From Obrimoposthia wandeli (lineage: Eukaryota), in assembly GCA_977020255.1 (NCBI GenBank), contig CDROCS010005134.1, positions 124,001 to 188,000 on the forward strand: 64,000 nt of DNA, written 5' to 3'. A program made the position numbers and the translations under genes. Below are positions 15,290 through 64,000 of the stretch, piece by piece. The notes under the pieces are model-generated. The model did no database searches, had not been told where the DNA came from, and was given only the letters and a program-made list of their open reading frames with translations. The first letter of the stretch is position 1; the number at the start of each line of letters is the position of its first letter.

Positions 15290-15757
15290 TTTTTTCTAAA
15301 GTGTCATAATGTAGACGTGCAAGCTACACTGTTGTCTGCAATGATTTCAGATGGATTATTAGACACATCAAAATTTTCTATAAACCATCCTTTAGCCAAT
15401 ACTGCGATAGGCAAGTTTAAGGATGAGAGTAAGCAATGTAGATATAAGCTATGGGTATTTTTACGCTCCAAATCATATAGCTTAGAAACTATAGACGGAA
15501 AATCCCAGATGAAAGCAAAGGGAATTAGCCTTAAGCAGACTGTGCTACGCCATGCGAATTATTTAGCTGCATATGAGAGTGGGGTTAGTGAACGAGTGCA
15601 ACAACAACGCATTAGTTCAATTAATCACCAGCTCTATACCGTAAATAGGAGTAAGATCGCATTGAGTAGCAATGACGATGAGAGAAAATGGGTAGAGAAA
15701 AACCGGTCAGTTGTCTACGGACATCATAGATATCCAGATGATTTTTCACTTGAATAA
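15290..15757 (+). pseudogene. protein-primed DNA polymerase B, C-terminal fragment
   Basis: FFLKCHNV...LLDTSKFSINHPL...GKFKDE...FLRSKSYS...KAKG...KIALSSNDDERKWVEKN...YGH aligns by eye with 56637-57083. Homology begins at ~15290, upstream of the track start. Confidence 0.9.
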
Positions 15758-16607
15758 TTGTTTTTGTATGTCACAAATTTATTGTACCTAATTTTCTCTT
15801 TGGTTTAATAAATATTTGTATCCAATTCGTCTTTTTCTAAGTTTAAAATTCTAAAGTATAAAAGTTCTGTGTAAAATTTTAATTCTAAAGTATAAAAGTT
15901 CTGTAAAATTATTTTTTTAAACTATAAAAATTGTTGTAAAAAATTATGTTGGAAATTTTATTTTTAAACTATAAAAATTTTGTAAACAATTTTATTTTAA
16001 TTTTAATTTTTTTTTGTTTATAAGCCATTTTTTAAAATTTTTTATTTTTTTGTTTAAAAACCATGTTGAAAATTTTGAATTTGGCGCAAAAAAATTGCGC
16101 CTTATTCAAATAATTTATTTTTTGTCATGTTTTTTCGTGCATGTAGATCAAGAATGAAGCCCGCCCCGAAGGGGCGGGTGGTGTATGTTAGGGTATGACA
16201 CGAGTCGTTTACATGTGTAGTTGTGAGAGGTAAAGTGATACTGTAGCGCATGTTTTTGTAGTTATTTTCGCAAGAATGGAACCCGCCCCCATGGGGCGGG
16301 CTGTGGGTGGAGTGTTTCGGTGGTGTTNNNNNNNNNNNNNNNNNNNNNNNNNNNNNNNNNNNNNNNNNNNNNNNNNNNNNNNNNNNNNNNNNNNNNNNNN
16401 NNNNNNNNNNNNNNNNNNNNNNNNNNNNNNNNNNNNNNNNNNNNNNNNNNNNNNNNNNNNNNNNNNNNNNNNNNNNNNNNNNNNNNNNNNNNNNNNNNNN
16501 NNNNNNNNNNNNNNNNNNNCCCAAAGGGGCGGGTGGTTGTCGGTGGGTGTTTCCATCCAACACCCATCGACTTTCACCCATCACCCGAGGTAGTCAGTGA
16601 TATACAC

Positions 16608-16832
16608 GAGAGCGAGACATTCATACATCGCAGAGCTAGTCTGTGACCTATATGAGAGCGAGACATCCGTACATCGCATGGCTAGTCTGTGATCTATATG
16701 AGAGCGAGATATCCGTACATTGCAGGGCTAGTCTGTGACCTATATGAGAGCGAGATATCCGTACATTGCAGGGCTAGTCTGTGACCTATTTGAGAGCGAG
16801 ATATCCGTACATTGCAGGGCTAGTCTGTGACC
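16608..16832. repeat. 46-bp tandem array, 5 copies
   Basis: Unit GAGAGCGAGATATCCGTACATTGCAGGGCTAGTCTGTGACCTATAT starts at 16608, 16654, 16700, 16746 and 16792. There are no spacers. Confidence 0.95.
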
Positions 16833-16894
16833 AATGTCAGTCCCGAGCCCTTCGAGGCGAAGGGCGCGAAATTTTTTTAGGAGGGGGGTACCTT

Positions 16895-17001
16895 CCCCCT
16901 TGTCCTTTAAAACCGTGCATGTGTGTGGAGTGAAATTTCACTCCACACACCTACAAAAAATTTCACTCCACACACATGCACGGTTTTAAAGGACAAGGGG
17001 G
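16895..17001. repeat. 44-bp perfect inverted repeat with nested 30-bp palindrome
   Basis: 16895-16938 is the exact reverse complement of 16958-17001. GTGTGTGGAGTGAAATTTCACTCCACACAC (16921-16950) is a perfect palindrome. Confidence 0.95.
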
Positions 17002-17040
17002 GAGGGGGTGTGTGGATTAGACCGGACACATCCACCTACT
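16945..17040 (-). repeat. Polinton right terminal inverted repeat
   Basis: The reverse complement AGTAGGTGGATGTGTCCGGTCTAATCC... matches 49608-49703. The first 22 nt are identical and identity is about 90% over ~95 bp by eye. It has the 5'-AG...CT-3' terminus typical of Polintons. Confidence 0.9.
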
Positions 17041-19779
17041 AGCTTGATATTATGATATTGGTTGGTAAAATGCTGGAATACTGGCTCCCGGATTGTAGCG
17101 TGAATTATATCCATCGTCTTTGTCATATGTCTTCTGAAATAGTTTAAAATATCCAAAAAACCTAAACTATCGTATGATTTTCCCTGATTGGTAACGTCTC
17201 CACACATACATCATAGTTGTGGTCAGTCCTATAATTGTTTTTAAAACGAAAGAATACCTAAAATAATCTATCCAAATCTTAAGAAAATCTGATATTTCGT
17301 AAATTATCCGTCTCCATATATTTTAAATAAAAATGCAGCACTATTTACTTTTCAATACACTATAAAATTTTAATACTAATGTTATAAAAAAAATTATCTG
17401 CCCCGTGTGTGTACGACGATTTGCCTTCTATAGTATATAATTAAACATTTTTTAAGGAATCACTGGGTTAATTATGTTAATTTTATTGGTAAGTTTTAAT
17501 TCGTATTAATATTATTTTTATTATTTTATTATAGACTTCCTGTCGGAATGTTACAACGGCACTATTTTGATTTATATTTTCAAGTTTAACATTTTCATGA
17601 TGGATTACACATAACCTACTATGACAATGTGTATAAAAATTTTCTATATAATTTTTTCTTAATGTAGATAAGTATTATAAATATTAAAAATAACAGTTGA
17701 GAAAAACTCTGAAAATAGTCTCAAAATATATTTAATGAAACTAATAATCATTAATTAATATAAGACTTACAATGTTCAATAATTATCATTCACAAAAATT
17801 GCAAAAATAAAAGAAAAATATTTAAATTATTCAAAATTTTGAATAAATATTAATAATACGAATAAGACATATTAAAATATTTCTAACTAGAACATTTTGT
17901 GTCACTTATTTCTAGATACCAATTTCGTTGCTATAAGTTATTTTACTTTTAACTACAACAGTAATGAGTAGAGTGTTATATTGATTATTAATGTGCTCTG
18001 TTCATTTCACTTGTTACAATGTCATGGGAATGTGAGTAACCAACATGAGGACAATTTTAATAATCTGGGATAGATTTCGGCGTAGAGATCTAACATATAT
18101 ATAAATCTATTTCATGACGATGGCTCACACGTGTAGTTAGCATATATTCGATATGTTAACGCATAGATTAGTCTGCTACACAAATGCAGTGTACATGTGT
18201 ATACATTACAAATAAGACAACTAAAGTGATGTTCAGCAATTATTTGTGGCTACTTTATAAATGAGAAATATGTAAACACATTATTGACGTACTACTGTTT
18301 CATGTTACTTTAGCTTTTATATTTTATGGATCATTAACAAGTATAATTATTTGATAACATTCAATGCTGCTATATTTACAAATTAGAAATTGAAAAGCAT
18401 AATCTCATAATACTACAACAGTCAAATAATTCCGTGGATAGAGGTAAAACCGTTGTTCGAAGATTTCATACCAATACAAACTTTATTGACGTTATAAACG
18501 TGTAGAGATTCAAAATTTTCAAAATATACGAGAAATATAAATTGATTCATTTTAAATAATTGACTAAAGCTTTTTCCAAATATCTGTACTTTAAAAGTCA
18601 ATTTGAAAATTTAAATGTCAGTCTAATTAGCGAATTTCGGTGAGTCATTCATAATTTGTATAAAAAGCGTCAATTCATATGAAAACAATCGAAATTGTAT
18701 TTGCTAACATTTATTTCTGTTCTAGCTAATAAAAATACAAACTATATACAGTCATTTATTTTGAATTCAAATAGGTATTAAATGCTGATTACGTTGGGTA
18801 GTAGTGGTGTTATGTTCGTTGCTAGTCGTTAACAGCTCAGTAGATTAATTTTTTTATTTTTAAATGTATTTATTTGACATTTTTTAGTTAATGGGTAAGT
18901 TGTGAGTTATAGGTAAGATAATTTAATTTGTGTAGTGAGCTTTATTTGTTTAACGATTTTATCATGAAATATTTCATATTATAAATACTATTACAATTAA
19001 AATTCCCTTTGAATCTTTATGTATTAATCTGCAGTATATATGGGTAAAATAAATTAAAATTGTAAAGTTAATTTAAAAGTAAATGAATTTATGTTGTTAT
19101 TTTTGCTCTAACATAGTTTACATTAGTTTCTAACAAGGAAACGTTTCGCACGGTCATAAAAAGAACTCAGTGAAATTTTAGTATATGATAAACATAATAT
19201 ATTGCAACATTAACAATGTATGTTTAGCTGCTAATTTATTTATAATAAAAAAGTTATATATATTAAATTTTTATAAAATTAAATTTTATGATTTGGTTTA
19301 ATTGAAATAATTTAAATCCAAAAATTTAAACGCACTAGTTGAAATAGTGTTGCAAATTTTAAAATCCAATAGGAATTTGCGAAGGTTTTATTTTAAACCA
19401 ATAACAATTTAATATTCATTAAATTAATTTTTATTTGGTATTTATTCATATAATCACGTTAGTGTTTCTATAATTTAATATATTTAAACACATTTATAAA
19501 TTTATCACATAAATATTTCTTTCGATAACTTTTTATATACTGAAAACTAGCAGATAATGAAATTACTTTTATATGTAGAATGCATTTCATAATTTTTATA
19601 CAAATTGCGAACTCCTAATTTTTATGACACCTAAAGTACGTTTCCTTGTAAGATATATTTTAACTAAATGGTATTATACAAGTTATTTTATGTATTTACT
19701 ATGGATTTATGGATTATATTTTAATATCGCTGTCCGTGATCCGAATTAATAATATATATAAAAATATTAAGCTACTTAC

Positions 19780-20088
19780 CGGCGTCTCACGGTCAAATAC
19801 TGTCTGGGTGTAGAGAGAGCCGTGGGTGTCGAGCTCGAAGAGATTAGAGAAGCCGCTTGGAATTATCTCGAAGAGCAATTTGGCGTTGACACCCTCGTCA
19901 CAGTCATCTGCCATCAGTTCAGCAACCTTGGTGCGGGTTGGTCGATTCTCCATAACGACCAGACCCTTAGAGGAGGGACTGATGGTGGGCTCACAATCGT
20001 TGACGTCCAACACAATGATGGAGACGCGTGCAGTGGTTGATAGACGTGACTGGTTGAGCAGAGCTTGATCTGCGGCTATTACCCGGAT
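19780..20088 (-). CDS. cadherin-superfamily gene, internal exon (309 nt, phase 0/0)
   Basis: TCTCAG|ATC acceptor and CCG|GTAAGT donor. Encodes IRVIAADQ...VLDVNDCEP...ENRP...ADDCDEGVNA...FDRE, with the cadherin DxND, AxDxD and DRE motifs. Confidence 0.9.
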
Positions 20089-21334
20089 CTGAGAGGCCGT
20101 GAACAGTCCAAAATACGTATAGAAATATTTCACAATAAATTTCCTTAAAATAAAATAATATTTTCGGTCCACGTTCCAAAAGTATAAACTTGATAACAAC
20201 TTTTGTCATTCATGGAGTAAAAAGTAACTTAGCGACCTAATATATGCATAATTTAGTTTTACTTTTCTAAAAATATACTTAACCCGAAAACATCAAAACT
20301 CAACAGGTTAATTATCAGTAGAGATAGGCCAAACTTTGAGTAAATTTTTATAAATATAAATATCTCAAAAGTGGGTTCGGGAATTGAGTATTTCCTTAGA
20401 TATATTTGGTTGAAGCGATATTCCACATTTCACTCTGAAAAGTACAACAAAGACGCTATTTTTGGCAAGGTCACGCTTAACCTCTTCGTAAGATTAATTA
20501 TTTTATGTAAAATACAATTATGAATCTATGAAAATATTTTTAAAATTGTAAATATTAAAACTTTTATTTAAATTTGTCTTTGAATTTTCTAATATATAAA
20601 TGATAATGTCAAATATTTTCCATCTTTATCCATCATTATTCGTTTATTATTATAATTTTTAAAATATTTTTCAGCATATATATAATTTTAAAAATTAAAT
20701 AATTCATAAAATTATTTAATTGTCAGGAATTTTAACAATTCACATGATCCTTTTCGTAATTTGAATAATTTTCATTCTACAGTTTTTTGTCCAGTTTTTC
20801 AGTTATACGAAATTGCAAAACAGATTTTATATTTTTTGTAAGTAGATTAGTTTTCATTCAGTTCAGAAATCAATTACATATAAGCTTGTTTTTACGTATA
20901 TGAGGTTTCTTTTCTTTTCAAACTTGTTTTCAAATTTGCGTAATTCTTGGGTTAACTTCTGTACAACTTTGAAAATTGCCAAAAATCGGTTGCGATTAAT
21001 GAACCATTACATAGCTGTCAGAATGGTTAAGACCAACCTAATATCTACAAAGGACGATGAAAGATGACCAATTTCATTTTAACATCTTGTGAAAAAAACA
21101 TTTTACAAACTAAATTATTTAAAAATGTTAAAATATTTCTGCTGGTGCTTTCTTTATAGAACTTTTTAAAAAGTATTATAAAAAAAATCTTTCAATTGTT
21201 ATTTACACAGTGGCATCTAGTTCAAGCTATAATAAATTACGTGTCAAGAAGTTCCAGTCTCGGACACATATTGAAGTAATGTGCATCTGGAACTAACAAT
21301 GTACGTGTTAGTATCACCGTGAAGCTGTACCCAC

Positions 21335-34788: not shown

Positions 34789-36513
34789 CCCCCTCCCCTT
34801 AAAGGTTTTAGCCATTCAATATTTCTTATTTTCGTATATCCATTTTCATCTGTTAATTCAAAGCTTCTATTATGTCATTTCTTTGTGATTTTATATGGTC
34901 CTTCATATCTCATATCTTGTTTATTTCTAACATCAGTTTTTACCAAAACATTATCATCTATAACAAAATTTCTGAAATTGTTTTTTACTTTCATGCGATC
35001 TTCCCAATTTTCATTACTATCACTGCTGTCTGTGAATAAAAATTTATTTATTTTTCTTCCAAAAGCAATTTCAGCAAGACTCTGGTTAATTGACGATTGC
35101 ATTGTAGAGTTCAATGTATATTCAATATTCGGTAGTGCCTCTTCCCAATTTCTGTAAAGCTTATATTCTAAACAACATGCAATCCAGTCTCTAATAGTTC
35201 TAAATTGACGTTCTACTTGACCATTGGTTTGGTAGGGATATGGACTTGAATAATTAATTGTAAAATTACATTTATTCGCCAGGTCAAACAATAATTTGGT
35301 TTCAAAACATTTTCCTCTATATTCGTTAATTTTCTTTAGAGCACCAAACTTTAATATCCATTTATTTATTAATATATTTATAACAGTATTTTCATCTTGA
35401 TTTTGAACTGACTCTAATACAATATATTTAGAAAATTGATATATTATAGCCAACATATTATTTCCATTGACCGTAGTCTTAAACGTACCACTAAATCTAT
35501 ATATAAACTTTCGTATGGCTCATTAGCAGATAATGTTATAACTTTTTCTTTAGTACGTCCTGTATAAGTCTTTCTTTTCTGACAAATCGTACATGATTTA
35601 ACTATGCTTCTGGTCATATTTTCCAAATCTTTCATATATAAACTATTTTTAATTTTACTTAATACTTTCTTTGTGACTGCATGACATAAATCTTTGTGCA
35701 ATTGACCAACAAAAGCCGACCTATCTTCTAAAGGGATGTATATTTTCCCACTACGATAAATAATATCAGAATTAATACTGAATTCACAGTTTTCATCATT
35801 GTGAATCTGTTTTCCGATATTAAATATATCTTTTGAAAACTTTTGTAATTCGTGAATTTTTGATTCTTCTGATATAACTAAAATTCTCGTTTTCAACTTT
35901 TCTGTCTTTGGATCTATATGTGTCAAATTGCATTGTTTACATGTGTCAATATTCATCCGTGACAGAGCATCAGCATTTCCATGTAAGTCTCCTTTTCTAT
36001 ATTCTAACTTAATATCAAGACTACTCAAGAAGTTCATCCAATTTTGAAATTGTGATGTAATCGGCTTTTTTGTTGTCATCATGAATGTAATTGCCTTATG
36101 ATCCGTTCTTAGAAGAAACATTTTTCCATACAAATAATGTTTAAAGTGCAGAGCAAAATGAAATACTGATAAAAGTTCCTTATGGGTTATACAATAACCG
36201 ATTTCATGTTTACTCATACTCTTCGATCCATACGTAATGGCTCTTTTATTGCCATTTCATCTAACTGCGATAAAACCGCTCCAATTGTGTCGAAACTGGC
36301 ATCTGCATCTAAGATAAATTTCTTCTTAAAATTAGGATGAGCTAAAATTGGAGATTTTAACCTTTGCAGTTTCAAATTATCAAAAGCATTTTCACATTGC
36401 TCATTCCATATCAATATTTTCTCTGTTGTGGTAGTCAAAATATCTAATGGCTTGGAGAATCGCGAATAATATTTGTTTATTGTGCGATTATAATTATAAT
36501 TATTTACCTAACA
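34585..36513 (-). mobile_element. Ty3/Gypsy LTR retrotransposon, deleted derivative
   Basis: RNase H (DASFDTIGAVL, KELL, TDHKAI) precedes integrase (H..H/C..C, NGQVER, YEGPY) in three frameshifted ORFs. A PPT AAGGGGAGGGGG abuts TGTTAG at 34788. A ~40-bp second LTR start sits at 36513. Flanks are TTCAA and TTCAT. Confidence 0.9.
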
Positions 36514-49607: not shown

Positions 49608-49703
49608 AGTAGGTGGATGTGTCCGGTCTTATCCACACCCCCTCCCCCCTTTGTCCTTTAAAACCGTGCATGTGTGTGAAGTGAAATTTCGTTTAGGTGT
49701 GTA
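49608..49703 (+). repeat. Polinton left TIR
   Basis: Matches the reverse complement of 16945-17040. It is preceded by ATAGAT (49602-49607), the predicted 6-bp TSD. Confidence 0.9.
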
Positions 49704-51335: not shown

Positions 51336-51824
51336 ATGCAGGAATATATCATAGATTTTGAGGCTTTCATTAACAAAAATGGGGATTATATTATAAAAGA
51401 ATTATGTATTATGGATGTATGCGCCGTTTTTCATCCTTTGCATTTCATATTTCATATAGATATCCCATTTAAAAGTTTAGATTATAAGAAAAAATTTACT
51501 AATTTATATCTAACTAAATATTTCCATTTATTAAAATGGATAGAAGGACATAAGGCTTTTTGTGAAATATGTATTTTCGATACTATTAAATCTAATTTTG
51601 ATATTGTAAATGGAATTTTTTATGTTTTAGATGAAATGGATGGCCAAAAATATAAGACTTTAAAAAAATATTTTCCTAAATTGAGGTTGAATACTTTAAA
51701 TATTTCACGTGATCATCTATTAAAAATTCCACAAAATATTTGCTGTCCATATCGTAATCATGGTGACCATTGCGCATATAAAAAATGTTTAAGTCTTTCT
51801 TATTATTACTTGACATGTAGATAA
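51336..51824 (+). CDS. DEDD/RNase H-fold-like protein with Cys/His-rich C-terminus
   Basis: The N-terminal YIIDFEAF...YIIKELCI resembles an ExoI DxE strand-hairpin, and the C-terminus reads CCPYRNHGDHCAYKKC. The first ATG is at 51336. Confidence 0.6.
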   Translation: MQEYIIDFEAFINKNGDYIIKELCIMDVCAVFHPLHFIFHIDIPFKSLDYKKKFTNLYLTKYFHLLKWIEGHKAFCEICIFDTIKSNFDIVNGIFYVLDEMDGQKYKTLKKYFPKLRLNTLNISRDHLLKIPQNICCPYRNHGDHCAYKKCLSLSYYYLTCR

Positions 51825-52090
51825 ACAATTATTCTAATTGGAGGAATTCATTATTAAAATTTTACAATTATTTACAAATAAGCCTTTTGATTGGAGGAAT
51901 AAAATTATTTTTTCAACCAATAACAGATAAACAATCCTTCTCTTTAATAGGAGGAATAAAATTATTTTTTCAACCTATAATAGATAAACAATCCTTCTCT
52001 TTAATTGGAGGAATAAAATTATTTTTTTCAACCAATAACAGATAAACAATCCTTCTCAGTGGAGGAATAAATTCAATTTTTTAATCCAAT
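51820..52090. repeat. 57-bp tandem repeat (3 full plus 2 partial copies) with CCAAT and AGATAA motifs
   Basis: GGAGGAATAAAATTATTTTTTCAACCAATAACAGATAAACAATCCTTCTCTTTAAT begins at 51893, 51950 and 52007, with partial copies at ~51840 and 52061. Confidence 0.9.
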
Positions 52091-52168: not shown

Positions 52169-53090
52169 ATGCCTATGGTAAGAATTTATTTTTATTATTT
52201 CCTTATTAATATTTATTATTTCAGATTACGTGTAACCTATTCCCTGCATATTGTGGTGCTTCGGCTCCGCATGGAGGGGAGACCTGCATGGAGACAATGT
52301 CTGCATACTATCGGACAAAGTCTCGCGGGCTTCACTTCTTCGTCTGCCCCTTCTGCAGAACAATGGAGGAGAAGGAGTTTCGAGACTTCTTCAGTGAACA
52401 TCGAGCTCACCTATCGTGTTTCACGGCCAACAACAAGAAGAGGGATATCGTGCAATTGGTGCGCAATTCGCAGGCCACTCCAGCTCCTGCTCCAATTCCA
52501 GTTGCAGTCGATCAACCCTTTTACGGTCCTGCCATTGGTCCTTCTCTCCCGGCTCCTGATTCTGCTGCTGCCCCATCCACTCAAATGTCTAACAATGAGT
52601 GGATGAATGACATATCCGAAGAAGATTTCACGGAGTTGGCGCCAGCAACCCAATTCTCAAACAATGACTGGATGCGAAATATCACCCAGTCAGATTTCGA
52701 GATGGAGCAGCCTCAGTGGAGCGACAACAGCTGGTTGGAGACCATCGAGGAATCCAATTTTGTCGAGTCAACGGACGACAGCTGGATGGATTTCGTCAAT
52801 GAAGAGGACTTCATTCCAGCTCAACTTGGATTGCCATCATTAGGTATTTTTTTATTTTTGTAAATTGTAATTATATATTTTATTTTTTATTATATATTTT
52901 TTATTTTTATTTTTTATTCAGGAAGTACCATGATACAGCCGTCATCCGATAGGACAGCTATGCCTCCCCCATCTCGAGTGCCTACATCGATGTTAGCACG
53001 CCTAAGAGGTAATTTTTTAAAATATATTTATTTTTTAATATATTAATTTCAGCACATGCATATCGACGTCCACAACAGTCGCTTCAATGA
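52169..53090 (+). CDS. four-exon gene, 250 aa: Cys/His-rich N-terminus, Pro/Ala linker, 4 acidic Trp repeats (putative transactivator)
   Basis: Exons 52169-52177, 52225-52843, 52922-53008 and 53053-53090. Three AT-rich GT-AG introns (47, 78, 44 nt) join in frame to 753 nt ending in TGA. Confidence 0.75.
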
Positions 53091-53096
53091 CATCAG

Positions 53097-53693
53097 CTAC
53101 TGATGATCGAGTGTATTTTTGTCGCTGACGACATTATTCAGTTTCTTTAGAGTGCTCGTTTTCGGTACTGTGATAATCTGTTTTACTCTTCTCGGTTCGT
53201 TGCTGCCCTTCTTCGGTTTGACTTCTTTCACAAACGTCACCGTTACTGACTCAAAGATGTCGCCCACCTTCTTGTCTGGCGTTTCGTCTGGGAATTTCAG
53301 GCCAGTTTTCGTGATTCTGTTTGGCTTCTTCGGCTTCTTGCCCTCACTGATTCTTACCACGATCTTCTTGTTTCCTGTAGTCAAGACCAAACCGTCTTTC
53401 GGCTTTTTGGGATTTGGTCTCAATTTATCTTCGTCTTCTTTCGTTACCTTTGGTGTCACTTTGATGTCAGTCAGTCTCTTGAGTGACCATACAAGCGCAT
53501 CATCTGCGAAACCAGCATTAGTTGCCTCACCTACAACACGAGCTGCAATTGCCTCAACATCGGCAGCACCTGCTACAGTAGCCCCTTCAACATCAGCTAC
53601 GATTGCCTCAACATCGGCAGCATCAACAATAGCAGCACCTTCAACCTCAGCTGCGATTGTCTCAACTATTAATATAAATAGTTGTCTTCCCGT
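53097..53693 (-). CDS. Ala/Val/acidic-repeat plus Lys/Pro-rich ORF (coding strand uncertain)
   Basis: Open stop-to-stop for 198 codons (VETIAAEVEG...KKPK...), with no ATG. The + strand frame 53119-53796 is also open. Confidence 0.45.
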   Translation of the reverse strand, partial: TGRQLFILIVETIAAEVEGAAIVDAADVEAIVADVEGATVAGAADVEAIAARVVGEATNAGFADDALVWSLKRLTDIKVTPKVTKEDEDKLRPNPKKPKDGLVLTTGNKKIVVRISEGKKPKKPNRITKTGLKFPDETPDKKVGDIFESVTVTFVKEVKPKKGSNEPRRVKQIITVPKTSTLKKLNNVVSDKNTLDHQ

Positions 53694-56600
53694 TCAATTA
53701 GGGGAGGTTTGTCAGCGACAAACGGAAGAAAGAGGCGAGGCCAATTTCTTAATAAGGTCCCACCCAAAAAACGTAGAGAAAACGGTGCTACTATAGAGTA
53801 TCACCTAAATAATAAATATGTTATAGTTAAGGTGCCATTAGGAAATGAAATTTTATTAAACGTAGGTGTAGATTCAAATATTGAAAATCTTTTAAAATCA
53901 GAAGTGACTAAATTAGGACAGGCTAAGGTTCAATTTTGCGCAACAGTGCAGTTTAAAAATGTCAATGAGGAAACTAAAACTTGGGTAATTTCACATAAAG
54001 CAACTGTTTTTTATGATAATTTTGTAACTGAAATTGGAAGAAACCTGGATGAAAAAATTGCTAATTATAGCGAGTTAAGTAGTGGATGGACTCTAGTTAG
54101 AATTCACGATGTTAGCTTTGTTCTAACAAAGTTCACTGACATGATATATCTTTCGGGGAGTTCATACATTCCTTCACCTAGATCTCTTCAACTTTCACGT
54201 TCCATTGTTAACGTACAAAACAGTGATAACCTTTGCTTTCTGTATAGCGTGTTGGCCATCCTCAAAAGGGATGTAATTACTGAGCATAGAGAGCGTGTCA
54301 GTAAATATACCCCTTTTTTAAATGAATTGCAGTATCATGGAATAGATTTTCCTGTTAAATTAACTGCGATATCAAGATTTGAACATCTTAATAACTTGAG
54401 TATTAATGTATTCAAATATAATACTGATATCCCAGTTAATGTAACAGATGAAGAAATTTTTAAAAATCCTTTTGTAGATGTAATTTATAGGAGCAAAAAT
54501 GAGGGGACTCAGGTCAACTTAATTTTGCTCGAACATGATAAAAAATTCCATTATGCTGCAATTCCCAGTTTAGATCGTCTTCTAAATTTAGATAATGGAG
54601 CCTTACCGGTTAGGATAAGGTGTAAGTGGTGTCATAGATGTTTGCATGGGTTCCGATCCGAGCTCTCTTACAGCAAACATCTGACATTATGTTCACTGAA
54701 TCCTGATGACAATACGCTATATAGCATGCCTTAGGATAAGGATTTAAAATTCAGGGATTGGGCAAAATGCATACCCGTGGAATTCAGGGTGTATGCAGAT
54801 TTTGAGTCAATTTTAGCATTGCACGACCAGTATGAGAGTATTCACCTACCGGCTTCGGCAGGACTACTATTCTTAGGCCCCAATATTACCCAGTATCATA
54901 AATTTTCCGGTCCAAATTGTATTTTAAATTTTATGTTAAAATTAGAAGAATTAGGAACAACAATTGTCAAACCGTGGTATGATCTCAATGCTCATCAAGC
55001 AATGATCATGACAGGCATAGACTGGGTTAATTTTAATTCTTGTAGATTATGTTATTTGTGTGGAACCCAGTCTAAGTTAGTCAGAGATCACGATCATGTT
55101 ACGGGGCGATACTTGGGAGTGGCGTGCAACCTTTGTAACCTTGGCCGTCGTCTCCCTAAAAAACTACGCATTCCCATCGTGTTTCATAACCTCAAAGGAT
55201 ATGATTTGCATCATATACTTAAATACGCGTTGGGTACATTAAGCTCTTGGGAAATTTCATGTATACCTCAAACTTCAGAGAAATATTTATCTTTAACTGC
55301 ATATACTGAATTCTGCAGTTTAAGATTCATAGATTCTCTGTAGTTTTTGAGTGGTTCTTTAAAAAATTTAACGGCATCTATAAATGCATGGCCAATTACA
55401 CAGTCAGTGTTCCCAGCTTCGGTTAACGATAAGGGGATTTTTCCGTATAAATTTGCGAAAACCTTTGCAGATTTAGAAAATACAACTGAAATCCCACCCA
55501 TAACTGCATTTGAAAGTGTAAGTCTTCAAGACTATAATGAGGCCGGTACATTTTGGGTGAATAATTTTCGAAATCTTCTCGAATATATGCTTTATTATAT
55601 GAAGTTAGACATTTATCTTTTAGCTGATGTTTTTGAGTCCTTTCGTGTAAAGTTTTTAGCAGAAGATGGGCTAGATCCCATGCATTTCTTTAGTTTACCT
55701 GGTCTTTCATGGGCAACAGCAATAAAAACTATTAAAATTAATATCGAGTTACTGCAAGATCCCGCGATGTATCAAATGTATGATTATGGTATACGCAGTG
55801 GAATGACTTTTGTCAACAAACATCATGTTGTCAAAAATCAATCCACGGAGATTCTGTACATCGATATTAATAATTTGTATGGGTGGGCGCTTACTCAACC
55901 TCTACCTCATGCCAACTTTAAGTGGGTTTAAGATGTGGATCAGTTGAATAAGTTGATGACAGATTTGGCTACTGTTGATACAGTTTCATCCGACGTCGGC
56001 TATTTGGTTGAGGTGGACATAAAAATCCCTCCCAATGTGCATGATAAATTAGATGATCTTCCAGTAGCGCCTGTTCATCAATGCCCACCTAATTCAAAGG
56101 TTAAGAAATTATTGTTAACCCAGGAAGACAAGTTGAATTATGTTGTGCATTGGCGGCTTCTTCAATTCTACTTAAAGTTGGGAGCGAAAGTTACTCGAAT
56201 TCATCGTGCTATAAGCTTCAGTCAAAACTTTGTGTTTAAAGACTATATTGAGAAGAATTCTAGAAAACGTAATTTGGCCACTAGCAAATTCGATCGGGAT
56301 TTTTACAAGTTAAAAAGTAATAGCCTCTTTGGAAAAACTGTAGAGGACTTGCGGAAACGTATTTGTCTACGGTTTTGCAATGATGAGCGTAAACTAATAA
56401 CATATACTAGCAAGTACAACTTCAAGCGTAGTTTTACAATTGCAGATGACTTGGTAGCAGTGTTATTAGGAAAACAGAGTATTTGTCTCGATCGACCGAG
56501 TTATATAGGTCAAACGGTTTTAGACATTTCTAAACTCAGAATGTATGAGCTTCAATACAAAGAATTGGATAAATACCGACAAGAATTTAACTGTGAGATC

Positions 56601-57083
56601 AAAATCGCGGCAGGGGACACTGACTCTTTCTTTTTATAATGTAGGAATGTTAGTTTAAATAATCAATTATTACCAGCAATGTTTAGGGACAACTTACTAG
56701 ATACCCATAAATATCCCGCTAACCATCCTCTACACTCTATGAGTTTAAAGGATATTATCGGGAAATTTAAGTATGAAAGCGAGGGACAAGTTTCGTATGA
56801 TGATTGTATTTTCCTACGCCCTAAATGCTACAGTTTACATGCATCTAATAATACATGTTCAATGAGAGCAAAGGGTGTGGGAAAAAACAATCTTACACAT
56901 GAGGCCTACCGGAAAGTTTATGATACTGGGTGTATTGAAAGCGTTGAGCAAACTAGATTTATTTCAAGAGCCCATCAACTGTATTCCCATAAATCAACAA
57001 AAATCGCTTTGAGTAGTAATGACGACAAGCGCTTTTGGGTAGAAAAGAACGCTAGCCTGGCTTATGGACACTTCCGAATTTAA
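53682..57083 (+). pseudogene. protein-primed DNA polymerase B (pPolB), 4 in-frame stops
   Basis: All five track ORFs share one frame. Motifs: YADFES (ExoI), FHNLKGYD (ExoII), CYLC..DHDH.TG..C..CN, YIDINNLYG (A), KLKSNSLFGK (B), DTDS (C), KCY. Stops at 54732, 55341, 55929 and 56637. No ATG at the N-terminus. Confidence 0.97.
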
Positions 57084-57359
57084 ACGGTTTTCATTTATTT
57101 GATTTTTTTAGTTTAGTTTTTTAAAATTTTAGATCCCTATGGCACCTAGACTCTAACTTACTTGTTATTTCAATACTTTTTTAGGATGGACCTTATTTAT
57201 TATGCCTTATCTTTGCTGACATATCTCATTGTGATGTTGTGATTAATAAATGTATTAAAAAAAATTGTCTTATGTCTTTTATTATTTTACCCTTATATTT
57301 TTAGAGATTTAAAAAATAATTAAAAATAAAACATTAAAAATATTTATTTTTATAACACA

Positions 57360-57740
57360 CTAATCGTTTTGCAACGATAACCATAAAATACATAAATGTC
57401 CACAGTTTCTCGTCGCAGGATCCTGATATTGTATCTTGTTGTAAAATACTCTTCTTCGGCCTTTTTGAATAGTCGAAACAAGTTTGTGTGGATAATACAT
57501 TGCACGTGGATCAAATACATGTTTTGTCCACTCTCTAACATAAATAGCTATCCAATGTTCTCCTGGTAAATTCGAAGTATGAGTATTGATAATGTAACCT
57601 CCAGATTGAAAAAATGGAATCATATCAATAGGATAAACTCCATTGAATTTATCACCCAGGACCTTCTCTGCTGATTCTTTTACTTGTTTTGAACTAAATA
57701 AAAATTAATAAATATAAATTTAAAATATGTCTTACTCCAT
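57360..57740 (-). CDS. adenain-like (C5) cysteine protease, two exons
   Basis: ATG GA|GTAAG...TTTAG|T with a 42-nt intron at 57735-57694 gives MDSKQVKESAEKVLGDKFNGVYPIDMIP...GEHW..VFD..YQ..NCGHLC. The catalytic His, Asp, Gln and Cys are present. Confidence 0.9.
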
Positions 57741-57741
57741 T

Positions 57742-58971
57742 CTATAATATGACAGTTCTGTTTTTATTGATTTGTATTTCTGAATCAAATATTCCGTAAA
57801 TAAGCACCGTAGTAGGATTTGTTAAAGCTGCATTGAACTTAATTTCTAGTCGTAAATTTCCATCCTTTGGTAGTTGGCATTGGTTTATATCAAAGTCTGG
57901 TGCCAAAACGAATGTGAAGAACGAGCAGCTGCTTTTAAACTCAGTGAAAGAAATACCATTGTTTATGTTTTTATCTAGTTGGCCCAAATTCCGAATAATA
58001 GATTGCGTATAAGCCAAAGCATAAGCGTTACCTTCGAAATCTGTTTTATATGTTTCGCGATAATCAGTGTTTCTTGAAAGTGTCACTGAACCTACACTAA
58101 GATTGTCAAATTGAGTTGCATCTGTCGTATAATTTCCTAGAAACTTTGCAGTTTTTTGAAAAGAAATTAAAATGAATTTCGGTAATCTTACATCACCAAA
58201 TATTTGATCCTTATTAAAAGCTTGTGTACCCGTACCTAAAGAATAAGATATAAGTTTAGTTTCTCTAATAGGATAACAAGCATTGTTTTTTTCCATTCCT
58301 ATATTATGTGCCATTAAAACTGATTGCTCGGTTTTAACTCTTCGAACATACAATTTTGCATCCAAAATATCAAGTCTAGGTTTTAAAACGTCCGTGCTTA
58401 TCAAAGAAAAATTCCATTTATTACGTTTCAAACGAAGATGTACATTAACACCGGGGATTATATATTTCGGTTATTCAAAGAAATTCAATCTCAAAGACCC
58501 ACACATTTCGTAAGCTTTAGAACCTGCAATCCATTCTTTGTGAGTTGCAACAGTTTTATCATAACCAATGGTTGCCAAATTAGTATTTTGAGTATCAGTA
58601 CTATAATTCAAAAGACTTTCAATCAAAGCTTTATGAGCATAGGAAGAATTTCCACCTTCAATTTTGACATTATTAAGAGTAACAATGGCATCATTAAATA
58701 AAGAATTAAAGAGATAATTTACAGGTGTTACATCGGCATTTTCATCTAAATTAGTACCATCCCGATTTAATACTTTTATTTGAACATAAAGCAAAGTATC
58801 ATTCAAATCTAAATACTCGCTATTGGAACCATTAATATTAAATTCTAAATCAGTTAAAGTGATTCCTGAAACTGAGTTAACTAGGAATATTTCTTCAAAG
58901 GAAGCATTATCTACAATTACTTGTGGAAGTGGTTTATCAAAAATACACAATTCAGTTTTGGCGCAACTCAT
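57742..58971 (-). pseudogene. major capsid protein (double jelly-roll), one in-frame stop
   Basis: MSCAKTELCIFDKP...DLNDTLLYV...NYLFNSLF...FFE*PKYIIPGVNVHLRL...KVRR...LRLEIKF...VLIYG. The two ORFs share a frame, and the TAA at 58471-58473 sits at the usual Gln position. Confidence 0.92.
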
Positions 58972-59345
58972 TTTGCAAATATTGTTCCTTCAACATTCTT
59001 ACGTTTGTTTATATTGATTTTTTGCTTCTTTTTACTTTTAAATCCACTACCTCCTTGGCTTTTATTTGATTTACGTTTTCTAATCAAATTAGCAACTTCA
59101 GGTAAAACATTATCAAGTTCATCAAGCGCATGCTTCTTAAAAGTTGGTATTAGTTTATTGTCCTTAGATGAAAGATAGTCCTTTCCTAATTTTGATATAA
59201 ATCGCCCGAGTCTCTTTAAAAGAGGAAAGGCAAATCTACCTAATGTTCTAAGCCAGCCAGATCCGTATTGTTTGCCAACAAAATATGGTAATTCTCCACC
59301 TTGTTGGCTTTGACTATAAGCTTCAATTATTGCTGGATTCGCCAT
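58968..59345 (-). CDS. putative basic/amphipathic virion core protein
   Basis: QQGGELPYFVGKQYGSGWLRTLGRFAFPLLKRLG is an amphipathic helix after QxG motifs, and the tail is Lys-rich. It lies between the minor and major capsid genes. Confidence 0.75.
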   Translation of the reverse strand: MANPAIIEAYSQSQQGGELPYFVGKQYGSGWLRTLGRFAFPLLKRLGRFISKLGKDYLSSKDNKLIPTFKKHALDELDNVLPEVANLIRKRKSNKSQGGSGFKSKKKQKININKRKNVEGTIFAK

Positions 59346-60383
59346 TTTGTTTTCTTAAATGTATTGTTAAACTTGTCTTGGCCCCGTACGTGAAATCTAT
59401 TAGTTGTCCTGAATCATCTCTAATATTTACTTCAATATTGTTTATAGAAAAGAGAGAAACTGGAAGATACATTGGTTGATCTATACACATACCGGCAGTG
59501 TCCCCATCTCTAGTTTCATTTTTAGATATCCATATTGTTCTCAAAAGTGGAACTCGTTGTCCTCCTACAAGCGTTGGTTCTATTAAATTAGTATAAATAT
59601 ATAAATGATTAACAGCATTTAAAGGTTTTGCCTTATTTTTAGCTTTTATGGTTTTTATTGTATGGGTTTCAAAGGTATTTCTGTTTAAATCAAGGTTTTT
59701 AGCGAGTTTATCATCAAATAAAACTCGTATTATATTGCTCTTTACTGTAAACGTTATTTTACCATTTTTTAATGTTACACATTTATCAAAATCTTCACTA
59801 CATTCCTTCTGTATTAATTTACAGAAATTCACTTCACTATCTAATTTATAATCTTTTGAAAACATTTTCCGTTCCACTACAATCTTAGGTCTCGTTTCAA
59901 CTAAAAACACTTTTGTTACTTTATCAGGAACATTTTTAAACGATTTAGATGAGACTATATCAGATCTCTTCATACCTACTACATGTCCACTATCAAAACC
60001 AAATTTAAGAGCTTCTCTATCAGATCCAAATATAAGTTGAATAGGTTGAAAATGTTTTGATCGATTTTTAAATCTGACTTTGTTTTTTCATATATTACTT
60101 TCACTTTTTTATCTATACAATTGTAATAGAATTTTCCTTTACTATCAAACCCAATCATAACTTCAATTGATTTTTCATGATCAACTTCTTTTGTAAACGA
60201 AATATGTGAGTTTTTTCTGATAGTAATTGGAGAATAATAAAAGGAAAATTCTGTTAAAGCCGCTTCCCATTCTCCTTGGAGATTTATAGGATTTTCCCAA
60301 ACGATAATAAAGCTACTAGCGTAATTATCTAGTTGAGTCTTCGGACATCCGTTACTAGGTAAAACCATATACATAGACTTCAT
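59323..60383 (-). pseudogene. minor capsid (penton-like) protein, one frameshift
   Basis: N-terminus YMVLPSN...PINLQGEWEAALTEF and C-terminus YIYTNLIEPTLVG...PLLRTI...IEVNIRDDSG...TIHLR. The frame switches at the T6 run 60083-60088. Confidence 0.88.
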
Positions 60384-61408
60384 ATTATATTAGATGCTGA
60401 TATCCAAGTTGGGTCTGAATAACCATGCCATTTAACAAAGTATTGTTTATGTTTACCTGTACCCTTAGATTTTAATATTTTTTGAATACGGAAAACGCTA
60501 GGTTTATTTGATATTACTTGTAGTTCTTGCTCGTAAAATTTACCGTGAACGATATTATTGTCAGCATCTTTAATAGTATACATTATTGGATTACTCTTTT
60601 GATCAATTTTACTTATACAAAATATTTCATCGCTCTAATTCTGATCAAAGTTTTTGATAAATGGAGTAGAGCTAATTTTCGAAATTCGAACATATTCGTT
60701 TTTCTTATATTTAGCTTTTTTAATTTTTTCTTTTTTATTTCTGTTCATCCAAATGTCCATAGAGTTTTTATTAGTAACATCAACAGGTCTCATTCCCTTG
60801 AGACCTCTATGTTCAGAGTGATTATATGCATGTATTATTTTAGGTAAAACTTGGATTCATTTTTTATTTCCTTCTTTTGTGAAATACTTTTTTATTCGAT
60901 CTCTTAGAGTACGATTAAATCTTTCTACTACTGCTGCTTTGTATTGTGAAAACACAGAGTAATGATTTATATTATTTTGTTTAAATAATGATTGAACTTG
61001 CTTATTATAAAATTCTTTTCCTAAATCAGTTTGCACATTTTGTGGAATGTCCTCTTTTAATATTTCTTTAATGGCTTCAAGCATAGCTATTGAAGACTTT
61101 GCTTTAACTGGAATTGCACGAGCAAACCTGCTAAATACATCAATACATGTTAAAATATATCGATATCCCTTATTAATGGAAGAATATGGGATCATCTCCA
61201 TCAAATCCATTTGCCATAAATTATTAGGACCGCTGGTTTTGTAAGCTCTAGTTGGAAACCTTCTTCTCATCGGCTTGTTCAGACTGTAGGCTAATTGGTC
61301 GCTGAGCCATTTCTGCGTTTTCTTGTAATTTTGTTTTGTTCTTTTTGCTAATTTTGAAACTCCTGTGTAGCCAATTGGATCTTTTGGATTGAACCATATC
61401 TTCTCCAT
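60380..61408 (-). pseudogene. retroviral-like DDE integrase with C-terminal chromodomain, 2 in-frame stops
   Basis: ATG at 61408 (MEKIWF). DDE motifs WQMDL, QTDLGKEF and VVERFNRT, then the chromodomain QYFVKWHGY. TGA at 60857 and TAG at 60635 both replace expected Trp codons. Confidence 0.95.
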
Positions 61409-61494
61409 TACAACAATTTGAATAGAAAGAAAATTTAAGTTTAGGTAAAGAAGAGCTAGCACCCATATCTTTAGCTGATTTTATAAATAATTGT

Positions 61495-61823
61495 TTATGA
61501 ACGTGTCGCAGCTATAATACTACTGATAATTGAAGCAACAACTGGAATAACAGCCCCTATGAAACCACCATTCTGTTTAAGAATAATATTTCGTTTTCTT
61601 TTTTACTTTTTACATTAGCAATATCTAGAAGAGTTTTTCTATATTTCTTTAATATATTTTTCCGATTTCCAACTTTTACTCGACCCAAAACTATATTATA
61701 CAAAACTTCCAATAAATCATCTACAACAAAAGATGGAAATGCTTTAAGAATAATAATTCTCTTATGAGAAGAGGCTTTGACTAAAGCTTTAAAATAGGGT
61801 ATGCTTCTTTGTATTTTCTTCAT
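61495..61823 (-). pseudogene. conserved small Polinton protein with pX-like hydrophobic tail, one frameshift
   Basis: One A added to the A6 run at 61599-61604 extends the 88-aa ORF into KRKRNIILKQNGGFIGAVIPVVASIISSIIAATRS*. Confidence 0.75.
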
Positions 61824-61838
61824 TTTAATAAAAAAGGT

Positions 61839-61994
61839 TCAATTTAAATATTGTTTATATTCGAAGCCATTTAAGTTTTTTTTATTTTTAACTACAGATT
61901 TGATTAATTTTTTAACTTCTTTTTTCTTAATGATTCTTTTTTTTGATTTCTTAGGCTTTGCTTTACGTTTTACTATCAACTTCGTAAAAGGCAT
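61839..61994 (-). CDS. 51-aa highly basic protein (below track cutoff)
   Basis: MPFTKLIVKRKAKPKKSKKRIIKKKEVKKLIKSVVKNKKNLNGFEYKQYLN has 20/51 K+R. It fills the gap between the ATPase stop (62002) and the next ATG (61823). Confidence 0.7.
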   Translation of the reverse strand: MPFTKLIVKRKAKPKKSKKRIIKKKEVKKLIKSVVKNKKNLNGFEYKQYLN

Positions 61995-62001
61995 TATAAA
62001 T

Positions 62002-62649
62002 TTATCTTTTATGATTGTTCTCTATTTGTTTATAAACAATTACTCCCTTAGAATTAAATATGTCTGTTAAAACACGTAAATCATCTGGGCAAGCTTGTGT
62101 AAAGTCAATAAATGTATACCCATGTGCTTGTTTAGCAGCATCGTGGAATGAATCAACTAGAAAGTTCTTATTTTGAGGAAATGCCTGTCTGGCCACAAAA
62201 TCAACAACTGTTTGATCTCTAGGATTTTTAAATAAAACTAAGTAATGTACATTAAGATTTCTTGTTCTATGGTGACCTCCTTGGTGAAACAGATTTTGAG
62301 TGATAAATATAACTGTTACTTCACGATGTCTTGCAATCTTTGTAAATAAATTATTAAAGTCCGATTCCTTGTTAGCATCCTCATACAAATCATCAATTAT
62401 TATTACATCTTCTTTTTTCAATCTTTCACACCAATTTGCATCAAATCCTTCAATAAATTGTATTCTCTTCAACTTGCAAACTTCTGTTTTGGTTAACCCG
62501 CTTTCCCCTCCTCCACCATGATGCCAATAAATATTTTTGAAACTAGATTTGAAAAGAGATTCATTTTGCAACAATTTACAGACGAAATGTGTCTTTCCAC
62601 TTCCACTAGGGTCAACTATTTGAAATACAGCATTATTATTTAGCTCCAT
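62002..62649 (-). CDS. A32/FtsK-like packaging ATPase
   Basis: Walker A DPSGSGKT (first Gly is Asp), Walker B IIIDD, and FTKIARHR..FITQNLF. Confidence 0.93.
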   Translation of the reverse strand: MELNNNAVFQIVDPSGSGKTHFVCKLLQNESLFKSSFKNIYWHHGGGGESGLTKTEVCKLKRIQFIEGFDANWCERLKKEDVIIIDDLYEDANKESDFNNLFTKIARHREVTVIFITQNLFHQGGHHRTRNLNVHYLVLFKNPRDQTVVDFVARQAFPQNKNFLVDSFHDAAKQAHGYTFIDFTQACPDDLRVLTDIFNSKGVIVYKQIENNHKR

Positions 62650-62686
62650 TGCATATACTCTTTCATTTTTAATATTGTTTATATTA

Positions 62687-62959
62687 TCATAGAAGTTTCC
62701 TTATTGAAATGTACAATGTTAGAGCTATTGTAGATGAAATACAAAAATTAATTAATGAATATTTGGCTATAATTTTATTTATTTGTGTACGATTTCTAAA
62801 TTCTCGAATAACGTGTGATCTAACCAATATTTCAACGTTATCTCTTGTTATATCATTATTTTTTAATTCTGATAAAATTTCTTTACCCCTAATTTTTCCA
62901 GAAAATATTTCGTCGGCAAGCAGATCCACTTCATTGTCTCTATTTATAGTATTATTCAT
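62687..62959 (-). CDS. hypothetical protein with C-terminal hydrophobic segment
   Basis: A 90-aa ATG ORF colinear with its neighbours, ending YSLINFCISSTIALTLYISIRKLL. Confidence 0.6.
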   Translation of the reverse strand: MNNTINRDNEVDLLADEIFSGKIRGKEILSELKNNDITRDNVEILVRSHVIREFRNRTQINKIIAKYSLINFCISSTIALTLYISIRKLL

Positions 62960-62987
62960 TCAAAACAATAAGTTTAAACGGGTTTGT

Positions 62988-63475
62988 TTATAGAAAAGAT
63001 AACAAGATGTAATAAGATATATTTTTTAAAATCAAATCAACAATGTCTGGATAATCAAAATTTTTCAATCCCAATATCATAACTTTACCACTTGAAAATA
63101 TATTTACACATAGCGGTTTAAACTTCAAATAACTGAGAGCAGGAAAAATTTCTGGTTCAAACATGCATTCTTCTTTCATTTTCTCTGCAGTTTTAAAAAG
63201 ATTTATCTGTTTCCCAAGATTAGCCGAAATCGTGATTGCAGTGATTCGAATTCCAAATGGTAAATTGAACCCAAGCATTGGTATTTTGCATCCCATAACA
63301 CGACAATTTCCTAAAAGAATTCAATATGAAAATAAAAAAACTAACCTGTAGAAAAAATAACAACTGTAAAATTGTCAAACTTTACGACATATTGTCTCGG
63401 CTTCCATTCATTGAATGGTAAGTACGAAACATCATCTTCTGTTCTACCTTTATAATTTATATTTACGAGTTTCAT
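62988..63475 (-). CDS. TATA-binding-protein-like protein, two exons, 150 aa
   Basis: Exon 63475-63346, a 35-nt GT-AG intron at 63345-63311, then exon 63310-62988. VIFSTGNCRVMGCK and FEPEIFPALSY...VNIFSSGKVMILGLK match the two TBP repeats (LIFSSGKMVCTGAK; YEPELFPGLIY...LIFVSGKVVLTGAK). Confidence 0.88.
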
Positions 63476-63505
63476 TAGTCTGAAATTGTATTCTGTAAAA
63501 TCTTC

Positions 63506-63693
63506 TTTATATATGTCTGAACCTGCTTTTTTATTGCACGTTTCTTGTAATTATCTTGCAAACCTATTATAATTGGATGATATATTTCTTCCAATCAATT
63601 TTGATTTTTAATATAGATTTAGTCCAATCAAATTCAATGCTTTAGTTATATTAACCAATGAGATTCATGTCTTTGTTAGAAATTAGTATAAAA
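63506..63693. promoter_or_regulatory. divergent TATA/CCAAT promoter
   Basis: Minus-strand TATATAAA at 63513-63506, ATTGG at 63572, CCAAT at 63591, 63624 and 63655, and plus-strand TATAAAA at 63687. Confidence 0.6.
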
Positions 63694-63724
63694 GAATGTG
63701 CCATTGGAGGACAAATCACAGTAA

Positions 63725-64000
63725 ATGCATTCATATCAAAGACAATTATCAACGATGGACGATAGCCAACGGGTATTAAGCGATGACGAAGAAATGTTTG
63801 AAGAATCGGATAAGGAAATGTATGAAGAAGTGAAACAATATTTCAAATACAAAGTCAGATTCTTGAAGAAGGCTCAACTGATTGCTTTAGTAAATCATGT
63901 GACAATTGAAAGAAGAAAGTTCAGCTACTATCTCATAGGTATTCAAAAACCTGATTTTCAATATCTTAAACAGAAAATAGAAAAGGCAGTTCCAAATTTT
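63725..64000 (+). CDS. hypothetical protein, partial (runs off window)
   Basis: MHSYQRQLSTMDDSQRVLSDDEEMFEESDKEMYEEVKQYFKYKVRF... is open for 92 codons to the end. Not in the ORF track. Confidence 0.7.
   Translation, partial: MHSYQRQLSTMDDSQRVLSDDEEMFEESDKEMYEEVKQYFKYKVRFLKKAQLIALVNHVTIERRKFSYYLIGIQKPDFQYLKQKIEKAVPNF

Follow-up and report, generated by a model that had tools for sequence, protein, structure and literature searches.

Cellular TATA-binding protein (TBP; PF00352; yeast 7o4i_O and Sulfolobus 1mp9) is the first system with which the small protein described here, mini-TBP, can be compared. The two have in common the saddle fold (predicted in the case of mini-TBP), the residues N69, F116, F190, P191 and F207, and the E186/E188 stirrup. 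Mini-TBP differs in its length of ~144-153 aa, in lacking an N-terminal extension, the repeat-1 helices and F99, and in the replacement of V71, V122, T124, N159, V161, I194 and L205; it also falls outside the eukaryotic clade of the host TBPs. It is encoded by a real TBP-family gene and is not a canonical TBP. In the available text of PMC1636458, the N-terminal repeat of TBP contacts the 3' half of the TATA box, where C is disfavoured even for a relaxed TBP mutant, and changes of I194 and L205 alter specificity. The available part of PMC7221094 assigns TFIIB binding to two glutamates of the C lobe, and binding of TFIIA, TAF1, Mot1 and Brf to the N lobe.

The TBP mimics of beta- and gammaherpesviruses (ORF24, UL87 and BcRF1, with a TATT late promoter) resemble mini-TBP in that their DNA face is polar and that a private variant of TATA stands before structural genes, as far as they are described in the available text of PMC12529657. 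According to the same text, ORF24 has 752 aa, keeps F99 and itself binds Pol II within a multi-protein complex, and a section heading there calls it TFIIB-incompatible, whereas the Polinton protein is one small domain with a TFIIB stirrup. None of the herpes-type late cofactor families was found among the 16 + 8 proteins scanned in Pfam, and the TBP domain is single. By analogy, mini-TBP most likely works like a herpesviral late TBP mimic, but it is not a member of that system and no sequence kinship is claimed.

TBP-like proteins of Nucleocytoviricota and mirusviruses appear as structural matches in BFVD (best E 2e-8). They are larger, and those among the BFVD matches with E < 0.001 are 11-21% identical. 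The available part of PMC7221094 describes giant-virus TBP-like proteins as diverged at the TFIIB site and paired with a viral TFIIB; in PMC10675990, as available, the relevant passage concerns mirusvirus-like elements.

The element that carries the gene belongs with the Polintons, Mavericks and adintoviruses, whose PolB, rve integrase, A32 ATPase, capsid, protease, terminal inverted repeats (TIRs) and 6-bp duplication it shares. In the available text of PMC8502044 (Starrett 2021), TBP is solely a label in the legend of Fig. 5, for a MELD virus in the section on non-animal datasets; the available portions describe no TBP fold, family, intron or promoter word, and the supplement text contains neither TBP nor TATA. 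In the accessible part of preprint 10.1101/697771, ‘TBP’ occurs in figure legends only, and the available text of PMC11071308, PMC10748475 and 10.64898/2026.06.19.733378 contains no TATA or TBP. In the openly accessible literature we found no description of the mini-TBP family or of the promoter word reported below.

The mini-TBP gene and its host element

The DNA analysed (the window) is a stretch of 64,000 nt from Obrimoposthia wandeli, positions 124,001-188,000 of the forward strand of contig CDROCS010005134.1 (GCA_977020255.1). On its minus strand, the mini-TBP gene runs from an ATG at 63475 through a GT at 63345 and an AG at 63311 to a stop at 62988, and its two exons (130 + 323 nt) give 150 codons plus the stop:

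63346..63475, minus strand: exon 1, 130 nt; repeat 1 strands; N69 and F116 equivalents at 63463 and 63355
63311..63345, minus strand: predicted intron, 35 nt, GT..AG, phase 1
62988..63310, minus strand: exon 2, 323 nt; end of repeat 1, and repeat 2; equivalents of E186 at 63158, E188 at 63152, F190 at 63146 and F207 at 63098

Exon 2 matches the Pfam TBP profile (PF00352) with E 1e-11 and 44.9 bits, above the cut-off of 22.9, and the 35 distinct PDB sequences that it matches are every one a TBP or TBP-containing. Exon 1 alone has no match in Pfam, but scores 38.7 bits on a profile built from 60 intronless relatives. The same profile can be used to score the splice. Enumeration of 16 donors and 11 acceptors gives nine pairs that leave both pieces open, and with the junction codon set to X the 35-nt splice scores 167 bits, compared with 104-115 for the other eight. 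Exon 2 by itself scores 116 bits and exon 1 scores 39, so the splice adds 51; this, together with the full length of the relatives, rules out exon 2 alone as a one-repeat protein.

Relatives point the same way. Two members of other Polinton families in the same genome (L049 and L052; protein ~50% identical) have no intron and read through colinearly at the site, and four further loci (L060, L062, L065 and C2687:185210) have introns at the identical site with differing sequences, the donor of L065 being mutated. The splice score and these intronless or differently interrupted relatives rule out an intronless, frameshifted pseudogene. Among 38 copies of the family, GT is present in 36 and AG in 35, and the intron is 35-40 nt long in 37; variation in its length carries little weight as evidence, since most copies with a longer intron are frameshifted as well. 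When four contig sets, which come from one sample and appear genomic, were compared with the stretch, none of the joints listed, 15 out of 183, coincided with the intron. From the splice score, the intronless relatives and the shared site we infer the 35-nt intron, in agreement with the initial annotation, which had predicted its removal to give a 150-aa protein with two repeats and proposed the Pfam comparison.

The element around the gene has the following parts, of which the capsid and protease assignments are weak matches:

49608..49702, plus strand: left TIR, ~95 bp, with a partner that ends at G000:C5134:189134; target duplication of 6 bp
53682..57083, plus strand: protein-primed DNA polymerase B (Pfam DNA_pol_B_2, E 1.9e-9); four internal stops
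57360..57704, minus strand: adenain-like protease (weak Peptidase_C5 match, E 0.15)
57742..58971, minus strand: major capsid protein (weak DJR-like match, E 0.06); stop at 58473
60857..61408, minus strand: rve integrase (Pfam rve, E 1.6e-13); frame ends early
62002..62649, minus strand: A32-type packaging ATPase (Pfam Pox_A32, E 3e-5)
63725..64000, plus strand: divergent gene that runs off the window; possible ssDNA-binding protein (Atlas score 0.86, cluster 12% Pox_I3)

Terminal inverted repeats with a 6-bp target duplication are a feature of Polintons/Mavericks. In this case the termini are at 49608 and, 1.1 kb beyond the end of the window, at the window-equivalent position 65134; the span is 15,527 bp, with an identical 6-bp duplication on either side. 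Because the termini and their shared duplication enclose the mini-TBP gene, it lies inside the Polinton, as had been proposed, and a position outside the termini is ruled out. With PolB, rve integrase, ATPase and the weakly matched capsid and protease, the element has the Polinton gene set, and no TFIIB-like gene was found among its 16 ORFs scanned in Pfam.

With four stops inside PolB and another inside the capsid gene, this copy of the element is probably inactive; any function is assigned to the lineage as a whole. Also, among 30 copies examined, 22 are 9 nt longer than the window copy of mini-TBP in the first strand of repeat 2; four of the 30 have the short form and another four are frameshifted there, and the usual product of the family in this genome is 153 aa. 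Thus repeat 2, described earlier as well preserved, keeps its E186/E188 stirrup and its Phe in this copy, but is not preserved in full. Open exons with GT..AG are found in 15 of the 38 copies. For variants private to one copy compared with those shared by at least three, pN/pS is 0.88 versus 0.35 in exon 2, and 0.77 and 0.54 in exon 1, from small counts (10 synonymous, 14 other); between families, pN is ~0.3 and pS 0.7-0.87. On these sequence comparisons, private variants appear near neutral and the gene shows a pattern of purifying selection.

Other features of the neighborhood can be recorded here. The family of the gene at 63725-64000 adjoins the TBP gene in 18 of 80 loci. A second gene related to it is found at G000:C5134:188257-188712, and its metagenomic relatives seemingly have an intron near the start; a relation to the poxvirus I3-like ssDNA-binding proteins is a weak lead. 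Another copy of this Polinton (G000:C5134:193436-207947) lies inverted 4 kb past the right terminus, 83-97% identical by segment and with internal deletions, and the frame between the two copies is presumably a mariner-like transposase. At window 15257-17041, a C-terminal fragment of PolB is accompanied by a 46-nt tandem array and a 48-bp hairpin of Polinton terminus sequence. This piece, which has a similar counterpart at G000:C5134:189310-191335, may be a small non-autonomous Polinton derivative. An LTR-retrotransposon pol fragment (34875-36256, minus strand) and a cadherin-like exon (19714-20205, minus strand) were labeled by eye.

Fold, residues and relatives of mini-TBP

For structure prediction we used the intronless relative L049, which is 52% identical to the window copy and matches Pfam TBP with 63.8 bits in two stretches. 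The model (pLDDT 97) has the strands of repeat 1 with no helix and a complete repeat 2. All of its 144 residues align with yeast TBP 66-238 (Z 13.9, rmsd 2.4); the next unrelated fold has Z 6.5. Mini-TBP is thus predicted to be a full two-repeat TBP saddle minus both repeat-1 helices. A longer member of the family (L135) retains both of these helices, so the family contains a long-to-short series.

Sequences for the residue comparison come from a profile search of 1.8 billion representatives, which gives 45 matches below 1e-30. The alignment of 129 proteins consists of 125 of the 153 hits, after a length filter, with one genome relative and three host frames. The family is defined by Met at the T124 column, and comprises 104 of the 129; T124M is therefore true by definition. 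Contact positions are those listed for yeast TBP in Table 1 of PMC12529657. Among the 104, N69 is kept in 87 (12 gaps), F116 in 100, and F190 and F207 in 103 each; all three Phe are kept in 98, and both stirrup positions, E186 and E188, are acidic in 98. The changes are V71N in 72, V122R in 100, N159S/T in 104, I194R in 78 and L205N in 103; none of the 104 has a residue in the F99 column. Conservation is favoured in such figures, because the hits were drawn by a family profile. At position 194, the family in this genome has Ser, not Arg.

Two helices in each repeat, and four intercalating Phe with the canonical minor-groove residues, are features of canonical TBP that are missing here; the acidic TFIIB stirrup is present, and TFIIB binding is predicted from it. 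The initial annotation had anticipated most of this from the window alone: the TBP fold of the repeat pair agrees with the L049 model, as does the absence of helices from repeat 1, and the loss of its first Phe and the acidic stirrup are both seen across the family. It had credited the protein with one intercalating Phe; that residue is retained, and the count is three.

A quick tree of 70 rows places the host TBPs in a eukaryotic clade (SH-aLRT 99), separated from the mini-TBP family by a branch with support 96; the family's own branch has support 92. The earlier judgment that the gene is too divergent to be host TBP is borne out, and recent capture of a host TBP is rejected on this quick tree, which shows no nesting with host TBP genes. 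The host itself encodes TBP in canonical form along with at least three divergent paralogues (L036, L037, L038/L041 and L039/L040), one of them apparently intronless, and its TFIIB matches in the genome are split into exons.

The family is widespread. In five 30-kb regions of the genome, all divergent TBP genes are among Polinton genes, and in four of the five they are directly upstream of the ATPase. A search of the genome with a distant ATPase finds solely the same lineage, with a TBP match no more than 1.5 kb away in 21 of 30 loci. Metagenome stretches encoding a relative number 165; among the best 80 of these, 40 are at least 3 kb long, and 30 of those 40 have a Polinton hallmark gene beside the TBP gene. 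A viral-contig collection scanned with TBP, ATPase and capsid queries gave no relative, and a phage collection gave no match; neither yielded a Polinton without a TBP gene for comparison. Mini-TBP is a conserved, regular gene of one wide Polinton lineage, not a one-off. The statement that TBP is not a canonical Polinton gene must accordingly be softened: it is regular in this one lineage, and TBP is labeled in the Starrett 2021 legend.

First-look DNA searches of the genome give candidates rather than verified copies: 1,122 with the window's family, 19,768 with the TBP profile and 22,452 with an ATPase. Some 20,000 candidates each for the ATPase and the TBP-like gene suggest that a large part of the 1.35-Gb assembly belongs to the lineage; mini-TBP would then mark one Polinton lineage that is enormously expanded in this genome.

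Three Polinton-like contigs (L156:234-758, L159:2290-2868 and L160) carry different, more canonical TBP-like genes and are without the promoter word. Because these are other TBP types, Polintons may have acquired TBP more than once.

A putative promoter word in the virion and packaging cassette

In the cassette at 57300-63000, the word (T/C)ATAAAC(A/G) has nine coding-strand matches compared with 1.1 expected (reached in 0 of 200 shuffles). The replication arm has none, nor does the left arm including the left terminus. Over the whole window there is no enrichment: 14 matches are found and 9.9 expected, and 12 of 100 shuffles reach 14. Copies in the cassette, and the promoter region on the other side of the TBP gene, are listed here:

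62985..62992, minus strand: word, TATAAACA; shares bases with the TBP stop; a 90-aa ORF follows after 33 nt
62676..62683, minus strand: word, 34 nt before the ATPase ATG
62027..62034, minus strand: word, 40 nt before a 51-aa ORF
61852..61859, minus strand: word, 36 nt before an 88-aa ORF
61492..61499, minus strand: word, C form, ~90 nt before the integrase ATG
60444..60451, minus strand: word, C form, ~67 nt before the ATG of a minor-capsid-like gene
59439..59446, minus strand: word lying in the minor-capsid-like gene, 101 nt upstream of the following ORF, which we take to be PZ-like
59006..59013, minus strand: word, 42 nt before the major capsid ATG
63476..63724, no strand assigned: divergent promoter region; canonical TATA at 63513 (minus strand, 38 nt before the TBP ATG) and at 63687 (plus strand); several CCAAT boxes

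In relatives, the word was counted on the sense strand within 100 nt upstream of ORFs with a near-expected start, after removal of near-duplicates. ATAAAC precedes the ATPase in 28 of 29 cases (shuffle mean 2.3, maximum 7; antisense 0), the major capsid gene in 11/13, the PZ-like gene in 6/7, the integrase in 10/17 and the protease in 3/6, as well as 7/11 genes of a class that we labeled, by assumption, exonuclease-like. It precedes none of 20 TBP genes, whose upstream windows contain a canonical TATA in 11/20 (shuffle mean 3.4, maximum 8) and CCAAT in 8/20 (shuffle maximum 7). The distance from word to ATG ranges from 6 to ~100 nt. Any sequence that differs from the word by one base is found in no more than 15 of the 77 upstream windows, against 62 for the word itself, and in the distant-ATPase loci of this genome it is present in all 30 read.

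The exceptions among the ATPase and capsid genes are the contigs L156, L159 and L160, where the word is at background. Their TBP-like proteins keep N159 and do not have L205N; this contrast between TBP type and word is only a hint because it comes from three contigs, two of them related. More generally, the link between protein and word is a co-occurrence among related elements, and the loci are therefore not independent.

Possible roles of mini-TBP

From the sequences, we consider it likely that mini-TBP is a late-gene switch, which would bind (T/C)ATAAAC and recruit host TFIIB and Pol II to the capsid, packaging and integrase genes. In the first step, the host machinery would transcribe the TBP gene early from its ordinary TATA and CCAAT promoter and splice the transcript. 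The product, going by its predicted structure, would be a full saddle without the repeat-1 helices. Its altered concave face may then read the word, whose C would lie in the half that is contacted by repeat 1 of cellular TBP. Last, the retained acidic stirrup would bind host TFIIB, while loss of the repeat-1 surface could leave the protein free of control by TFIIA, TAF1, Mot1 and Brf. The word does depart from TATA in its 3' half, and the remodelled repeat is the N-terminal one, which contacts that half in cellular TBP; the family retains the TFIIB-binding Glu and loses much of the N-lobe binding surface. On the broader proposal, of a widespread lineage of 15-kb integrating DNA viruses with a one-gene early-to-late switch in which a minimal TBP, lacking the regulatory surface of repeat 1, reads a private TATAAAC box and uses host TFIIB directly, we lean only slightly to the positive side.

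The word could instead be read by a host factor, whether of Forkhead type, host TBP or a paralogue, with mini-TBP having a different role. ATAAACA fits the Forkhead consensus, RYAAAYA, but GTAAACA, the favoured Forkhead site, is found in 2 of the 77 upstream windows, compared with 62 of 77 for ATAAAC. The several divergent TBP paralogues encoded by the host would also be candidates, and the four GATAAACA repeats at 51821-52042 count in favour of a host reader; yet the word occurs on the sense strand only, is common to elements whose ATPases are merely 25-77% identical, and has its C in the downstream half, where even the relaxed TBP mutant disfavours it (PMC1636458, available text). We regard this reading as unlikely.

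The initial annotation offered two roles, redirection of Pol II to element promoters and titration of TFIIB by a decoy. A decoy or repressor with no site of its own, which would titrate TFIIB or block host promoters, would account for a stirrup kept while the repeat-1 surface is lost and the canonical base contacts are changed. However, the residues that replace the canonical ones on the DNA face hardly vary, and three Phe are retained; a pure decoy would have no use for either, and the promoter word is left unexplained. Redirection of Pol II is the favoured role, because the surface that faces DNA remains conserved, though altered, and because a matching non-canonical word precedes the virion and packaging genes; the decoy appears quite improbable.

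A role on element DNA other than initiation, for instance in packaging, replication or the bending of termini, is suggested by the usual neighbours of the TBP gene, which are the packaging ATPase and a gene possibly for an ssDNA-binding protein. Such a role seems very improbable, given that the word precedes genes and is missing from the left arm with its terminus, and that the TFIIB-binding acids are conserved. It is scarcely credible that the word serves as poly(A) signal for the gene upstream of it, with the TBP gene a passenger. The word does look like AATAAA, and one copy shares bases with the TBP stop codon; but it occurs in coding regions, where it is used by 20 of 30 Ile-Asn pairs in the tails of genes versus 17 of 137 elsewhere, the word precedes a head-to-head ATPase gene (L107), the convergent PolB/protease ends have AATAAA and not the word, and the TBP gene appears to be under purifying selection.

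The proposed late-gene switch matters beyond this element. Timing of capsid-gene expression in Polintons bears on whether they behave as true viruses, and a dedicated promoter word with an initiation factor to match would provide direct evidence for a cascade of viral genes, one that could be tested with one small protein and an 8-bp site. If the proposal is true, mini-TBP would be, in a single protein, the independently evolved equivalent of the herpesvirus late complex, and the protein and word would form a natural orthogonal TBP-promoter pair. The long and short types of the family provide natural steps that show which parts of TBP are dispensable and which residues may retune specificity.

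One further gene of the element can be described in this context. Downstream of the four GATAAACA-containing repeats (plus strand), an apparently spliced gene at 52210-52863 (plus strand) encodes a Cys-rich N-terminus followed by repeated acidic Trp/Met/Phe motifs, and is conserved upstream of PolB in other families. Its product resembles a zinc-binding acidic activator and could be a partner of mini-TBP.
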